Source of the DNA: Phycisphaerae bacterium
GTDB lineage: Bacteria; Planctomycetota; Phycisphaerae; UBA1845; Fen-1342
NCBI GenBank assembly: GCA_963675745.2
Contig: CAXXWX010000013.1
Coordinates: 96,001 to 160,000, forward strand
DNA length: 64,000 nt
Direction: 5' to 3'
Shown: piece after piece, positions 6,903-49,599 of the stretch
How the letters are laid out: each line of letters opens with the position of its first letter
How positions within the stretch are numbered: position 1 is the stretch's first letter
The notes under the pieces: model-generated
What the model was told of the DNA's origin: nothing
What the model saw: only the letters and a program-made list of their open reading frames with translations
Database searches by the model: none
Made by a program: the position numbers and the translations under genes

Positions 6903-7019
6903 ATGTGACAGGGCCGAGGACTCGAGGATTCAAGGACGACGGGGCTCATGGTGTTCCGCCAACTCGCGGTTGTGAATCAACGCGCGCCACCATCACACAG
7001 AGCGCGGATTCTGAGAGAC

Positions 7020-8372
7020 TTATCTCGCCCACAACCGTACGATCGCCTCTGCCCCACGGTTGAGGTCGGGCAAACGCACCTTTTCGTTCGGCCCGTGTGC
7101 GTTGCACTGCGGGCTGGCAAAGCCGAGCATCAGGCTATCGACGCCCAGCAGTTTCTTGAACATCGGCAGTATGGGCAACGAGCCGCCTTCGCGTATCAGG
7201 GCGACGTCGCGGCCGAACGCGTCCCGCAGCGCCTCAATCGCCGCTGCCATCGGGGCGCTATCCAGTGGTGCCATGTAAGCGTCGGCATGGCCGTGGTGGA
7301 TCAGTTCGAGTTTGACACTGTCCGGGCAACGGGCGCGGATCGCGTCGTCGAATAAGGCCCCAAGCGTTTCCGCGTCCTGGTTGGGCACCAGTCGCATGCT
7401 GACCTTGGCGCCCGCGCTGGCGGGGATAATCGTGTTGGCGCCGTTGCCCATGAACCCGCCGAACACACCGTTGATGTCAAGCGTCGGCCTGATCCATCGA
7501 CGTTCATTAGTGCTGTAACCTCTCTCGCCGACGGTTTCAGGGACACCGATGTCCTCGAGATAGGCTGATTCATCGAACGGCAGGCTCTGTAGTTGGCGGC
7601 GTTCGTCATCAGAGGCCTCAATCACGTCATCATAAAAGCCCGGGATCGTCACGCGGCCGTCCGCATCGTGGAGCGATGCGATCAAGTCCGCGAGCACGTG
7701 GGCCGGGTTGGCGATTGTGCCGCCGAACGAACCGCTGTGCAGGTCATGCTTGGGGCCTGCCAGGCGGATCTCCTTATATAGCAGGCCGCGCGTGCCATAC
7801 GTGATCGTCGGCCAGCCGTCCTCGTACATGCCGGTGTCGGAGATAAGTATGTGATCGCAGGCCAGCAGTTGCTTATGTTCGTCGATAAACGTGGCCAGGT
7901 TGGGCGAGCCGATCTCCTCCTCGCCCTCGATAAGTACCTTGAGGTTGATGGGCAGCTCTTTGGCCGTGGCCAGCCACGCCGCCGCCGCGCGCAGGTAGAT
8001 CAGAACCTGTCCCTTGTTGTCGGCGGCTCCACGCGCGATCATCCACTCATCGGTGATCACCGGTTCAAACGGATCGGCGTCCCACAGGTCTCGGTTGCCG
8101 ACCGGCTGGACGTCGTAGTGACCATAAACCAGGTACGTGGGCTTATCTTCATCCGTGATGCGTTCGGCGTAGACGGCCGGATGACCGCCGGTATCGTGGA
8201 CTTCCGCTACCAGCCCGATGTCCGTGCAGAGGCTCTTCAGCCAGTTTGCGGCGTCCACCAGATCCTGCTTGTGCTCCGTCAGCGTGCTGACAGTCTGGAA
8301 TCTCACAAGCTTCTTGGCCCACTCGAGGTGTTCGGCCTGATGGTCATTCAGATACTCGATCACATGGTCCAC
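7020..8372 (-). CDS. M20 family metallo-dipeptidase
   Basis: YGHYDVQP, ARGAADNKG, EGEEEIGS, HSGSFGG, AHGPNE. Confidence 0.93.
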   Translation of the reverse strand: MDHVIEYLNDHQAEHLEWAKKLVRFQTVSTLTEHKQDLVDAANWLKSLCTDIGLVAEVHDTGGHPAVYAERITDEDKPTYLVYGHYDVQPVGNRDLWDADPFEPVITDEWMIARGAADNKGQVLIYLRAAAAWLATAKELPINLKVLIEGEEEIGSPNLATFIDEHKQLLACDHILISDTGMYEDGWPTITYGTRGLLYKEIRLAGPKHDLHSGSFGGTIANPAHVLADLIASLHDADGRVTIPGFYDDVIEASDDERRQLQSLPFDESAYLEDIGVPETVGERGYSTNERRWIRPTLDINGVFGGFMGNGANTIIPASAGAKVSMRLVPNQDAETLGALFDDAIRARCPDSVKLELIHHGHADAYMAPLDSAPMAAAIEALRDAFGRDVALIREGGSLPILPMFKKLLGVDSLMLGFASPQCNAHGPNEKVRLPDLNRGAEAIVRLWAR

Positions 8373-8632
8373 GCGGCATACTCCTGGAAAAGGATGATCC
8401 GTCGATTGATCTAACGGGTTTCTTCGTACGGCGGATTGCGCGTGCTGACGGCCGCCCGCGCGAATGCGGATTGTAACGCATCCGCCGCGCCCGGTCTTTT
8501 CCCGTCGGATGGTGCAGTGGTGTGGGGCAGGTAGTGTAGGCTAGGTCGTTCGCGGCGAGACCTGCCGTCGCGAGATGACTCTCACCCGTGGGCGATTGCT
8601 CACACAATGGTAATGGCGGCGTATGTGCGTAT

Positions 8633-8829
8633 AAAAAAACGGAGTTGGAACCTCTCCTGGCGACCGCCGGGCTGAGTAGCCGCCAAGGAACCGTTGGTTC
8701 CAACTCCCAGGGACCATCCGGGGAGCGAATCCGGAAGGTCTAACACCACCTATCTCCCCGCAGGCACAACACCTCGGGAACATGCGAGGCTCCCCGCTCG
8801 CACGCGCCCGCCACGGGCGTTAGGCATTA
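8633..8829 (-). ncRNA. Candidate sigma54-dependent small RNA (~200 nt)
   Basis: Four hairpins; the last has a 12-bp perfect outer stem (8641-8652/8696-8707) followed by T7 on the minus strand; sigma54 consensus directly upstream; no credible ORF. Confidence 0.55.
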
Positions 8830-8839
8830 GACATAATCA

Positions 8840-8855
8840 AGCAATTGCTGCGCCA
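8840..8855 (-). promoter_or_regulatory. Sigma54 -24/-12 promoter
   Basis: Minus strand TGGCGC-AGCAA-TTGCT, with exact GG-N10-GC spacing. Confidence 0.65.
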
Positions 8856-9072
8856 CGCAGGCCCAACGACGCGGATAATTCGCGATAGTCACTGTAAGTT
8901 GCGCTATCATCAAACGTTATGGGAAGTGGCATTCATGGGCGTGTCTGGGTTGGGCTCGCTGGTGGGTACTCATTGCCCATTAATGTGGTAAATCAATCGA
9001 AGAGACTACCCACCCAGGTACGGGGCTGCCGTGTTGCGCGCCGGCGATTCTTCTTGGTGCCGGCTGGCACGC

Positions 9073-9438
9073 TTACTCGGGCTGCGGGGCGGGGTCGTGT
9101 GTCTGGATCGCGTCATCCAGCGTCAGATCGGCGAGCTCCGGCAGATACACCCAGGTGTGGTCCGCGGTCCGCTCATACCAACCCGCAACGCCGTACCAAC
9201 CGGTATCGTCATCGGTGATAACGGTCCACACGCCCACATCGGAGCGAGATTGCGGGAGTTCGTAATAGGCCAGGCCAGCATCCAGCGACTCGACCCAATA
9301 CACGCCCGGCGTGACCGGCTTGGCACTTGGCTTGTCATCCAGCTCAACGGCCAGCTCGCACGGGCATCCGCCAGACATGATCGTGACCGCCAGCAGGGCG
9401 GCGCTCAGGCCTGACATGTAGCGGTTGCCATGTTGCAC
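9073..9438 (-). CDS. Small hypothetical lipoprotein
   Basis: Signal ending SGGC, Trp/Tyr-rich mature part; CAGGAG upstream. Confidence 0.6.
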   Translation of the reverse strand: MQHGNRYMSGLSAALLAVTIMSGGCPCELAVELDDKPSAKPVTPGVYWVESLDAGLAYYELPQSRSDVGVWTVITDDDTGWYGVAGWYERTADHTWVYLPELADLTLDDAIQTHDPAPQPE

Positions 9439-9777
9439 ACCTGACTCCTGAGACGGGTGCTCGACCCGCGCGGCGACTGTTCGCCAATTATATGCCTCTC
9501 TGTCCGTGGCACCTAGCCTCGGTTACGTATCCGCACGGCGATGCCAACGCACTTGACCATGACGTACACGCTCTGGCCTGCGCGCGATGTGTTATGGGGC
9601 GCCGGCCGCCCACCGGCCGCTCGGCCGACGCACATTCACTGATGGCCCGAAAATGTGCGCCGCAAAGGCGCCTCAGCAGGCCCCGGAGTTGAGCAGCGCC
9701 ACGCGGCCCGGTAGATTAGCGCCGTCCGGTCCGCAGCGGGCGCTGATACATCGAAATCCGAAGCAAGGTGACATGAC

Positions 9778-12618
9778 ATGAACCCCATCCGCAGCGCATT
9801 CGCGCGCCTGGCAGCGACGGCCGTGCTGGCACTGCTGCCGCTGGCTTTCGCCGGTGCGCAAGATGATACGCCGATTGCCAGCCCGGCAACGCAGGCCGTG
9901 GCGATTGAGAATCCACTTCGCACGCCCCACGACACCGTTGACCTGTTTCTAGTGACTCTGCGCAAGGCCGAGTCAGCACGTGACCCAAACGCTCGCGCCG
10001 ACCTGCACACGCTGGCGATGGACTGCCTTGACCTCGGCACCATGGATATGGATACGCGCGCCGCCAAGGGACCGGACTACGTGGTCCAGCTTTACGATAT
10101 CCTGAGTGCGCTCATCGACGCGGGTTATCTGGATCCCAACGACACCGCGGTTTTGCCGGACGAACCGACGGTCAAGGGTGACGTGCAGTCGTTTGGTAAG
10201 CCGCCCTTTGTGCTGGTTCTCGAACGCCTGCCGCGCGAGGTGGTCAGCGAGGCCGGCACTGAGCCCACCACGATTCACGAGTGGCGTTTCTCGGCCAACA
10301 CGGTCAGGGAGATTCCGCGCTGGCATGAGAATCTGCCGAGTCTGCGCGAGGCGATCGCCGCACGCGCGGCGCATGAATCCAAACCGGCGGTTCAGCCCGC
10401 GGATTTGAAGCTGCTGCGCTCACCGTTTCACACGGTCACGTACTTCCTTGACCGGGCCAGCGAGGCCAAGGAGGTTGATACCGCCTACTACGCCGACGCG
10501 CTGCGCTGTCTGGACTTTTCCGAGGCGGCCGCGGCGGCCCTCAAGGCTGAGCTCAAGCTCGAGACCGCGGCGGACGTCGCCGATGCGATGCGGCTGCGCG
10601 GTCCGGAGTACATCGCCGCGTTCGCTGAAGAGAGTGGTATCGCGTACGTTGATGGGCTGGCCAGGATCCTCGGGGCACTGCAACAGACCGGCCAGCTCAA
10701 GCTCGATGATCTGGACGCCGAACTCCCCGACGATCACAAACCGACCTATGCGTTCGGCCTCGACCCGCTGGGCGTAACGCTGATCAGACAGGCGGATGGT
10801 CGCTGGCTGTTTGGCGCTGAAACCGTGCGTGACGTACCGCGCATGCTGGAGGCCCTGGCAGACTCGTCAGCCGGCCAGCCCGAACCGATCGTGTCCGCGC
10901 CGCCGGCCGGTGACACCTCGGCGGCCCTGCCGGTTGCCGCGTCACCGGCGGCGGCTGCATCAGCCGGCGTTCCGCACGTGCGCTCCGCGTTCAGATCGCC
11001 GCGCGCTACCGTGCGCACATTCCGCCGGGCGATGCGTGAGGGTGACCTGGCCCGGGCGACGCAATGCCTGGATCTTTCCGAGCTGAGTGTCACGCAGCGA
11101 GAGTTGGCCCCCATCATGGCGGGGAAGCTGTGGCTGGTCATGATCCGTACGGAGTGGATTCCCGAATCACAGATTCCCGACGACAGCGACGGCGACTCGT
11201 TTGATCTGCTGGCGCGCACGGCCGGGCGCGTGGAACTCGACCGCCAGTGGACGCCGCCGCGCGAAGGGGCGTGGTTGTTCACGTCCCGCACGGTTGCCAA
11301 GATCGAGACGCTCTACGACACGATGGAGCGTCAGCCGATTCACCCATCGTGGGCCGAGCATGGCGTGAGTCCGTCGGCGCGGGCCATCTCGCCCGCGGCG
11401 CTGCCCGCTCTGTTCATCAGGGAATACTGGGTGCCGTCGGCGCTGCGGCATGATTTTCTGCGTATCGAGCTCTGGCAGTGGCTCGGCGTTTTACTCCTGC
11501 TGGTGTTGGGGCCGCTGGCGCGCGTGTGTGTCTCCGTGGTCGCGGCACCGATCGGCCGCCGCATATTGAGCACGCGGGACGTGGCCATGCTGCCCAGCAC
11601 GGTTCGCCGATCGTTAATGCCGCTGGCGATGCTGGCGATGCTCGGCGTGTGGTGGGGTGGCCTGCAGCTCCTGGATCTGCCGCAGGTGATGGTCATGTGG
11701 GCGTATTGGCTGCTGCGGATCGTGATGACGTTCTTCTCGGTCCTGGCGGCCTATCGGCTGATCGACCTGGTGATGACCTATTCCGCGGCGCGGGCCGCGG
11801 GTAGCGCCTCACGCCTCGACGATGTCGTCGTGCCGTTGATGGACAAGACGCTCAAGGTCATGGCGGTGGCCTTGGGCCTGATCTTTCTGCTGAACGTCAT
11901 CTTCGGCATTGATGCCTGGCGGCTCGTCGCCGGGCTCGGAGTTGGCGGTCTTGCAATCGCCTTTGCCGCCCAGGATACGATCAAGAATTTCTTCGGGTCG
12001 ATCAATGTCGTGCTCGACCGGCCCTTCCAGGTGGGCGACTGGGTGATCGTCGGCGGCGTCGAGGGCATGGTCGACTCGGTCGGCCTGCGCAGCACGCGCA
12101 TACGCACTTTCTACAAGTCGCAGGTCACGATTCCCAACAGCGAGATCATGAACGCCACCATCGACAATATGCAACGCCGCCCGCTGCGCCGCTTTAAGGC
12201 CATGATCGGCGTTACGTACGATACAAAGCCGGAGGCGCTTGAAGCGTTTACCGAAGGGATTCGCGAGTTGATCAGGCAGCACCCGGTTACGCACAAGGAG
12301 ACCTTCTACGTATATGTGAACGAACTCGGTGACTCGTCGATCGACATCCTGCTCTACTGCTTCCTCGAAGCCCGAACCTGGGAGATCGAGCTGCGCGAGC
12401 GACAGAGGTTGATTGTCGACATGGTCCGGCTGGCAAACTCGCTGGGCGTCGAATTCGCCTTCCCGACACGCACGCTGCACATGTATTCCGAGGAGGCCAA
12501 CGCCGCACGCATGGACCACATCCCGGCCAAGGTGCCGGCCGCACTCTCGCTCGGCCGCGAAAGCGCGGCGGGCATCGTTGACACGCACCTGCCGGCGGCG
12601 ATGAAGGCGAAACCGTAG
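9778..12618 (+). CDS. MscS-family mechanosensitive channel with long periplasmic N-terminus
   Basis: LGVGGLAIAFAAQDTIKNFFG, DRPFQVGDW, GLRSTRIRT, IPNS, EFAFPTRT; signal peptide. Confidence 0.93.
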   Translation: MNPIRSAFARLAATAVLALLPLAFAGAQDDTPIASPATQAVAIENPLRTPHDTVDLFLVTLRKAESARDPNARADLHTLAMDCLDLGTMDMDTRAAKGPDYVVQLYDILSALIDAGYLDPNDTAVLPDEPTVKGDVQSFGKPPFVLVLERLPREVVSEAGTEPTTIHEWRFSANTVREIPRWHENLPSLREAIAARAAHESKPAVQPADLKLLRSPFHTVTYFLDRASEAKEVDTAYYADALRCLDFSEAAAAALKAELKLETAADVADAMRLRGPEYIAAFAEESGIAYVDGLARILGALQQTGQLKLDDLDAELPDDHKPTYAFGLDPLGVTLIRQADGRWLFGAETVRDVPRMLEALADSSAGQPEPIVSAPPAGDTSAALPVAASPAAAASAGVPHVRSAFRSPRATVRTFRRAMREGDLARATQCLDLSELSVTQRELAPIMAGKLWLVMIRTEWIPESQIPDDSDGDSFDLLARTAGRVELDRQWTPPREGAWLFTSRTVAKIETLYDTMERQPIHPSWAEHGVSPSARAISPAALPALFIREYWVPSALRHDFLRIELWQWLGVLLLLVLGPLARVCVSVVAAPIGRRILSTRDVAMLPSTVRRSLMPLAMLAMLGVWWGGLQLLDLPQVMVMWAYWLLRIVMTFFSVLAAYRLIDLVMTYSAARAAGSASRLDDVVVPLMDKTLKVMAVALGLIFLLNVIFGIDAWRLVAGLGVGGLAIAFAAQDTIKNFFGSINVVLDRPFQVGDWVIVGGVEGMVDSVGLRSTRIRTFYKSQVTIPNSEIMNATIDNMQRRPLRRFKAMIGVTYDTKPEALEAFTEGIRELIRQHPVTHKETFYVYVNELGDSSIDILLYCFLEARTWEIELRERQRLIVDMVRLANSLGVEFAFPTRTLHMYSEEANAARMDHIPAKVPAALSLGRESAAGIVDTHLPAAMKAKP

Positions 12619-49308: not shown

Positions 49309-49599
49309 CTACCAGCGTCCGCCGCGTCGGCCACCGCTGTTGCCGGCCGGGCGTGGCTTGGCTTCGTTGACCTTGATCGTACGGCCACCGCACTCCGTGC
49401 CATCCAGTGCCGCGATCGCCGCCTCAGCCTCCGCGTCCGAGCTCATTTCGACAAACCCGAAGCCCTTGCTGCGGCCGGTATCGCGGTCGTTGATCACGGT
49501 CGCGCTGTCCACGGTCCCATGGTCGGCGAACATCTGCTGAAGGTCATTGCCGGTAACGTCATAGCCAAGGTTTCCCACGTACAGTTTCCTACCCATCAT
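49309..49599 (-). CDS. RRM RNA-binding protein
   Basis: RNP2 LYVGNL, RNP1 KGFGFVEM, VNEAKPR, Gly/Arg tail. Confidence 0.96.
   Translation of the reverse strand: MMGRKLYVGNLGYDVTGNDLQQMFADHGTVDSATVINDRDTGRSKGFGFVEMSSDAEAEAAIAALDGTECGGRTIKVNEAKPRPAGNSGGRRGGRW

Follow-up and report, generated by a model that had tools for sequence, protein, structure and literature searches.

The question raised by this locus is whether the DNA ahead of an M20 peptidase gene encodes an RNA in its own right and, if so, what that RNA acts upon. The locus lies in a window of 64,000 nucleotides (positions 96,001-160,000, forward strand, of contig CAXXWX010000013.1 from the Phycisphaerae bacterium genome GCA_963675745.2, hereafter the source genome), on which an earlier note had proposed a standalone, sigma54-driven small RNA (sRNA) encoded by the minus strand. 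The -24/-12 box that it named is indeed present at 8855-8840, and the predicted ~197-nt product, here called RNA A, would occupy positions 8633-8829 of the minus strand, its 5' end being set by promoter geometry. The RNA would begin with a small 5' hairpin (8805-8819), for which no counterpart was seen in the homolog folds, followed by SL1 (8782-8803), whose loop bears the family motif GGGAGCC (8794-8788), the likely pairing seed; the GGGGA of SL1 is unpaired in 74-99% of the ensemble computed for the window copy. SL2 (8748-8765), a hairpin with a GGGGAG loop, lies 3.7 kcal/mol above the minimum free energy in the window copy and draws its support from homologs, where the corresponding helix 5 is 84% paired. 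SL3 (8712-8740) has a C-rich, subclade-specific loop, AUUCGCUCC(CC), on a stem that is 91% paired among homologs, and SL4 (8641-8707) is a long interrupted stem whose base helix is 88% paired and doubles as the stem of a predicted intrinsic terminator, with a U7 tract at 8633-8639; most homologs likewise have T-rich sequence behind SL4. In the alignment, the SL4 apex of the window copy retains GCCCGGC and has lost the GGA of a second copy of the family motif. The small 5' hairpin, SL1, SL3, SL4, the T7 run (8639-8633), a repeated GCGGGGAG (8797-8790 and 8761-8754) and the CTCCCCG at 8725-8719 had all been placed correctly by the earlier note; SL2, as well as the activator palindrome and the AT-rich tract upstream of the promoter (see below), were absent from it.

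Within one genome, the fold of 8633-8829 (-95 kcal/mol, z -3.07) was equalled in stability by none of 200 shuffles, and 22 instances of the strict sigma54 box exist across the source genome. The seven GGA triplets counted previously are there, but their enrichment is weak (7 versus 4.3 expected) and ANGGA is missing altogether. An alternative fold that had been suggested for the repeat and its complement would cost 4.5 (SL2:SL3) or 8.5 (SL1:SL3) kcal/mol, with an ensemble pairing of at most 0.005. Because the box count, the GGA count and the cost of the alternative fold are each within chance when taken alone, support had to come from outside this genome, and conservation is what raises RNA A above chance. 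A terminator scan called no site in RNA A, owing to the interruption of the SL4 stem. The covariance models of Rfam 15 had no match in window positions 7000-11000 (E up to 5) or in 16 homolog loci (E up to 1), so that the Rfam search asked for by the earlier note leaves RNA A uncatalogued. Its identity with 6S RNA was rejected, since RF00013 does not match it and the 6S RNA of the source genome is encoded elsewhere (C26:801495-801680). The source genome has no paralogs of RNA A; the second copy of a 16-mer, at C13:175957, falls within an open reading frame (ORF).

Homologs of RNA A were detected by BLAST in all three genomes of the same genus and fold with z-scores of -3.6 to -5.8. Two rounds of covariance model searches found RNA A, always in a single copy, in 35 of the 72 genomes of the family, and inspection of 40 regions syntenic with a UbiA prenyltransferase gene added two members, for a total of 37; these counts are lower bounds, as the models lacked full-length refinement from all homologs. 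Covariation was assessed on 33 full-length homologs, leaving out the partial G064 copy, the split G085 copy and two later finds. In this set, 79% of the aligned cells pair and 48 of 57 base pairs change on both sides, compared to 62% pairing in shuffles (0 of 500 reach the observed value) and 36-43% in slid controls. Although the covariance model alignment is fitted to the structure, a plain MAFFT alignment yields the same blocks. The GG and TG of the promoter are invariant in 33 of 33 aligned homologs, and rpoN is present in the source genome, so that promoter and stems prove to be conserved in relatives. A strict pattern run across GTDB returned 93 stretches, of which 80 were scored; 7 were real and nhmmer added one unlisted locus, none of them new, and the real matches came only from records titled Planctomycetia, Planctomycetales, Phycisphaerales or Phycisphaerae. 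Outside the family, marginal matches to the model R2 in 4 of 119 genomes (E 0.01-0.05) were rejected as unconvincing. That search, which rates only a few candidates per genome, overlooked one in G114 (E 0.0002 in a small search), and absences outside the family are therefore soft. A loose promoter-plus-motif pattern, for which the control was as high as the signal, served only to gather candidates. Conservation leaves little doubt that RNA A is a genuine sigma54-driven noncoding RNA.

The regions upstream of the homologs share a recurrent layout. Their commonest 7-mer is TGGGTAA/TTACCCA (24 of 36 regions), and palindromes of the form GTGGGTAA-n-TTACCCAC are located ~100-160 nt upstream of the -24/-12 box, with an AT-rich tract in between. 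In the window, the palindrome, a predicted binding site for an activator (bEBP), is at 8961-8980 (minus strand), with further half-sites at ~9006-9015 and 8985-8992, and the AT-rich tract, recognized by eye at the same position as in the homologs, spans 8893-8921 (minus strand). It could be an IHF-like bending tract, by analogy to the glmY promoter as portrayed in PMC3045617. With matrices trained on the homologs, the sigma54 matrix including the window promoter itself, the RNA A locus outscores every other palindrome-plus-sigma54 site in the source genome (33.2 bits versus 26.3 bits for the next). Among the sigma54 activators encoded in four RNA-positive and four RNA-negative genomes, one protein, with the GAF-AAA-HTH domain architecture and no further domains, was found in 4/4 positives and 0/4 negatives. 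Across the 72 genomes of the family, 35 carry both this activator and RNA A, 29 carry neither, 2 have the RNA only and 6 the activator only; all six of the latter, out of eight discordant genomes, are fragmented assemblies of 390-800 contigs. The association (Fisher p 7e-12, overstated by kinship) is accompanied by presence/absence splits of both genes within the genera g12 and g26. A conserved -24/-12 box, upstream activator sites, rpoN and a co-occurring candidate activator, as expected of a sigma54-dependent sRNA gene, are thus all found here, and the GAF-AAA-HTH enhancer-binding protein, encoded at C15:82392-83909 of the source genome, is the putative activator of RNA A. Its identity as NifA was rejected: two orthologs scored 427 and 440.5 bits, below the TIGR01817 cut-off of 528.85 bits. 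In 5 of 5 loci (including L295-L298), the activator gene stands in divergent orientation to an ECF sigma gene, and in the source genome (C15:82392-87301) this pair is followed by genes for an anti-sigma-like protein and a PEP-CTERM protein paralog. Upstream of the RNA A promoter, the window encodes a 121-aa possible lipoprotein (9073-9438, minus strand) without a Pfam match; a gene whose product is 37% identical to it is found upstream of the G001 homolog.

The gene downstream of RNA A codes for the UbiA prenyltransferase in 22 of the 37 genomes, in at least seven of which (judged by eye) it has its own TTGACC-n16/17-sigma70-like box after the RNA A terminator; a divergent UbiA gene is found in 1 genome and other genes, often convergent, in 14. 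As the neighbors of RNA A change, it is not an attenuator, and attenuator or riboswitch classes were rejected in the absence of a constant position upstream of functionally related genes. The suggestion that RNA A might attenuate the M20 peptidase gene is refuted by this changing neighborhood: although that gene is on the same strand as RNA A in the window, it is found downstream in the window only (1 of 37), and convergent or inverted neighbors are common. Likewise, an 80-codon ORF (8783-8541) begins within SL1, but its ATG is not conserved and it has no Pfam match. That RNA A is an M20 leader, a small ORF or a product of chance is accordingly highly improbable. A copy of a dispersed ~31-35-bp repeat, with ~25-30 BLAST matches genome-wide, is located between RNA A and the M20 gene (8536-8566, minus strand). 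A homolog of RNA A was also present in seven sequencing runs, four of them, from one study, on record as RNA and three guessed to be RNA. In four runs compared on the homolog locus L186, of which only X1 and X4, from one study, are on record as RNA, contigs of 151-262 nt cover the predicted RNA and its 3' flank (1504-1765, 1576-1798, 1542-1764 and 1620-1770), one of them starting 26 nt before the predicted start. These contigs carry no strand or end information, come from runs picked using the same stretch and represent a homolog rather than the window copy, so their cover is only consistent with expression of that homolog; transcription from the sigma54 promoter is inferred. Coding genes that lacked cover in the same comparison were left out of account. 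Still, with rpoN present in the source genome, promoter and stems conserved and RNA libraries covering one homolog, the standalone sigma54-driven sRNA of the earlier note is upheld.

What the family conserves is a loop motif. GGAGCC occurs at least once in all 33 homologs, with 54 copies versus 5.7 expected and two copies in 21 of them, and in the alignment the tips of SL1 and SL4 show it in the longer form GGAGCCCRGCA, the general form being GGAGCC(C)RGC. The earlier note had counted the GGA triplets and suggested a CsrA/RsmA-type sponge as one option. The gene for CsrA is indeed present in the source genome, within a fliW-csrA-flagellin cluster, and in 71 of the 72 family genomes, with or without RNA A, which renders co-occurrence with csrA uninformative as a test. 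GGA does sit in loops, including positions 3-5 of the SL2 hexaloop, and its total in the 33 homologs is elevated (233 versus 181 expected). However, this excess of 52 about equals the GGAGCC excess of 48, ANGGA is not enriched (34 versus 31.2 expected, and none in the window copy), and SL4 variants drop the first G or the entire GGA and yet keep GCCC. The SELEX-derived CsrA consensus, as given in PMC7652899, has an invariant ACA before the GGA and short stems. The canonical ARGGA site, which agrees with that published consensus, is retained in the flagellin leaders of this very lineage (18 of 20 regions fetched; the other 2 could not be parsed), and FliW is present as well. A CsrA sponge of the CsrB/RsmZ kind is therefore quite improbable. 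In the same 18 of 20 regions (L411-L430; C26:576500-576580 in the source genome), a near-invariant hairpin of ~30 nt covers the flagellin ribosome-binding site downstream of csrA and is likely to be a CsrA operator. Targeting of Shine-Dalgarno (SD) sequences through CUCCCC, another proposal of the earlier note, is at most a subclade feature, as GCUCCC in the SL3 loop is limited to 8 of 33 homologs and the target searches revealed no enrichment: complements of the seed were not over-represented around the start codons of ~3,600 crudely called genes of the source genome, and the SL3 seed was not superior to 8 shuffled ones. At C26:534050-534091 (plus strand), ~30-40 nt ahead of a start codon, 10 nt are complementary to the SL3 loop, a match within this shuffled-seed background. 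An SL1-SL4 kissing loop via tandem GA pairs was rejected, as inspection of the alignment by eye showed no compensatory change.

A search for the complement of the loop motif in five genomes recovered, in two of them, the same intergenic hairpin RNA of ~110 nt with a U tail. The model built from those two loci, found in this way by their complementarity, detected this RNA B in 17 of the 72 family genomes at E<1e-5 (L497:1501-1614, plus strand, with further loci L498-L513). The 12-mer GCCGGGCUCCCC, the exact complement of the RNA A loop motif, is invariant in 17 of 17 sequences that have a mean identity of 65%. Of the two strands, the C-rich one has the better fold in 14 of 17 cases, and it is this strand that T-rich tails follow; the consensus structure was derived with RNAalifold. 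Rfam models did not match RNA B in either the initial 2 or the further 15 loci, and its identity as 6S RNA was rejected. RNA B is located 21-86 nt after the stop codon of a PEP-CTERM-type gene in 13 of the 17 genomes, with that gene absent in the other 4, and a tRNA-Val(TAC) gene is found nearby on the opposite strand in 8 of 15 loci scanned. Of the genomes with RNA B, 13 also carry RNA A, 3 more have the activator and one (G061) has neither. In 8 of the 13 cognate pairs, the best helix is formed by 11-14 unbroken base pairs on the motif; the duplex energy is beaten by no more than 7 of 100 shuffles in 10 pairs, whereas 3 do not beat shuffles, and cofolding of the whole molecules gains 0 to -7.8 kcal/mol. 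Both motifs could form mirror-like mini-hairpins, GG-GAG-CC in RNA A and GGG-CUC-CCC in RNA B, which would suit a loop-loop start of pairing. The motif being invariant in RNA B, no compensatory changes between the two RNAs were found; pairing in vivo and its direction are what we infer from the complementarity.

Searches for RNA B came up empty in 24 of the 37 genomes with RNA A, and a direct search in five such genomes with an intact motif gave 7 matches, none of them B-like. In metagenome contigs, 15 stretches were retrieved, none of them real. The source genome also yielded no RNA B in the model search, and its orthologous tRNA-Val/PEP-CTERM/truB site holds just a short terminator, even though SL1 of the window copy could pair with the RNA B motif over 9 contiguous positions. 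None of the eight genomes with GCUCCC in the SL3 loop has RNA B (Fisher p 0.03, kin not independent). Given this pattern and the loss of the SL4 GGA, the window copy may act on another partner or have changed its role. Intergenic C-rich candidates listed for the source genome number 10, and 5 loci were inspected. One structured intergenic stretch (C16:106600-106760, plus strand), with a GCUCCCCGC hairpin tip and a U tail, has a 9-nt complement to SL1 and is a possible partner.

Taken together, these data suggest the following scheme. The GAF-AAA-HTH protein would bind the upstream palindromes and, with the help of DNA bending, open the sigma54 promoter; transcription would end at SL4/U7, and the resulting RNA would expose the G-rich GGAGCC(C)RGC at the apex of one or two hairpins and act via base pairing with a C-rich partner bearing GCCGGGCUCCCC. 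In 13 relatives, this partner would be RNA B, encoded directly 3' of the PEP-CTERM gene or in its place. In the simplest reading, RNA A resembles a ribosome-binding site with GGAG and so sequesters an anti-Shine-Dalgarno RNA upon the activator's signal, possibly without Hfq, which had no match in the source genome (91% complete). A sponge or antagonist of a C-rich RNA that acts by base pairing is the reading we lean towards, at slightly better than an even chance, the conserved complementarity to a separate noncoding RNA being found in the 13 relatives and the partner not in the source genome. The position of RNA B relative to the PEP-CTERM-type stop codon in 13 of 17 cases would also fit a 3' UTR element, with RNA A pairing to the mRNA 3' end, and the fully unpaired SL3 loop, found in eight genomes, none of them with RNA B, could pair with ribosome-binding sites via UUCGCUCCCC in the window's subclade. 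Such pairing with mRNAs is rather unlikely, as 4 of the 17 genomes retain RNA B in the absence of the PEP-CTERM gene, neither the seed complement nor the SL3 seed rose above the background described above, the loop complement search revealed no shared mRNA target, and the sole repeated protein-coding locus among 30 non-self complement loci was antisense to its ORF. The same loops could instead be read by an RNA-binding protein for which RNA A is a decoy. The two motif copies in 21 of 33 homologs, the shift of the motif from SL1 to SL2 in G021, the recurrence of GGGGAGAY loops in seemingly unrelated RNAs that other families encode downstream of this type of promoter, and the two RRM proteins of the source genome would all agree with this idea. 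A decoy, however, leaves the invariant exact complement in RNA B unexplained, the conserved stretch of up to 12 nt frays at its ends, and no candidate protein emerged; we consider it unlikely. One of the two RRM proteins, a small RNA-binding protein, is encoded in the window (49372-49584, minus strand).

Several sRNAs with multiple stems, including Pxr from Myxococcus, CrcZ, NrsZ and Qrr, are sigma54 dependent and resemble RNA A in these respects, although it has no Rfam match to any of them. GlmY, another possible parallel, is reportedly a decoy for a protein. In the GlmY/GlmZ system of Enterobacteriaceae (PMC3045617), an sRNA gene likewise has a sigma54 promoter that is accompanied by IHF sites and several sites for the activator, but this activator is the response regulator GlrR rather than a GAF-domain protein like the RNA A candidate, and RNA A has no Rfam match. 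Similarly to RNA A, CsrB, RsmY and RsmZ are multi-hairpin RNAs with GGA in their loops (PMC7652899); RNA A differs from them in lacking CAGGA/ANGGA repeats, in its long stable stems and in the presence of FliW. Closer in its proposed mode of action is CrfA of Caulobacter crescentus, a separately encoded, signal-induced RNA that inactivates the sRNAs SisA-D via pairing; CrfA pairs were recovered on Hfq (PMC12559287), whereas RNA A comes from a genome with no Hfq match and its pairing is only predicted. The two were compared through Rfam, in which RNA A has no match. In the CJnc190/CJnc180 pair of Campylobacter jejuni, according to PMC8687705, CJnc180 is a cis-antisense RNA, in contrast to RNAs A and B with their separate loci and ~12 nt of complementarity. 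As a sponge, RNA A would thus most likely work like known sponges while belonging to no catalogued family.

RNA A and RNA B represent two uncatalogued RNA families, and their predicted 12-nt interaction is testable in vitro with two short transcripts. The open-access literature contained no characterized regulatory sRNA of Planctomycetota that we could find, and RNA A is undescribed in the literature surveyed, including PMC13443453; supplementary sRNA tables could hold RNA A or RNA B. Should the pairing prove correct, sequence alone would have revealed an sRNA-sponge circuit in a lineage without an Hfq match, and sigma54 signaling would be linked to a PEP-CTERM surface-protein locus. In addition, the candidate activator comes with its predicted DNA site and with a promoter signature by which more structured RNAs can be recognized throughout the order. 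Within the order, 187 of 251 genomes encode the GAF activator, while RNA A model R2 gave no convincing match in the 119 genomes outside the family. The promoter-only pattern was found in 98 of 250 genomes, about half of them by chance according to the reversed control; 75 of these loci were examined and 33 hand-picked and folded, 18 of them with z <= -3. The folded RNAs, not necessarily homologous, fall into several family-specific types, some of which have GGGAGCC, GAGCCCG or GGGGAGAY loops in common, and 20 of them had no Rfam match. It is possible, though on balance doubtful, that these are parts of one order-wide module of Planctomycetota, in which a GAF sigma54 activator beside an ECF sigma/anti-sigma pair induces lineage-specific structured RNAs that serve as Hfq-free loop-loop sponges of C-rich anti-Shine-Dalgarno RNAs from PEP-CTERM 3' ends, with the partner lost in the window's subclade and the C-rich motif reappearing in SL3.

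Some of the loci with this promoter type deserve separate mention. Structured RNAs from family f2 (L385, L387, L388, L393, L396 and L404), which have no Rfam match, carry a conserved module on the 3' side, and the loop of their terminator hairpin is GAGUGCGAG. Short C/U-rich RNAs of the same family (L394, L395, L400, L386 and L398) contain a single-stranded stretch resembling an anti-SD sequence, which is CUCCUCCC in two of them. Structured, mostly U-tailed RNAs were seen in families f7 (L371, L373, L382, L166, L164, L372, L378, L379 and L381), f3 (L352, L356 and L353), f11 (L350) and f6 (L360), with GGGGAGAY, GGGAGCC or GAGCCCG loops in common with RNA A. Finally, in L326, L336 and L359, sigma54 promoters with the same palindrome half-sites precede type VI secretion tube genes (hcp/tssD), as confirmed by TIGR03344 for L326 and judged by resemblance for L336 and L359.
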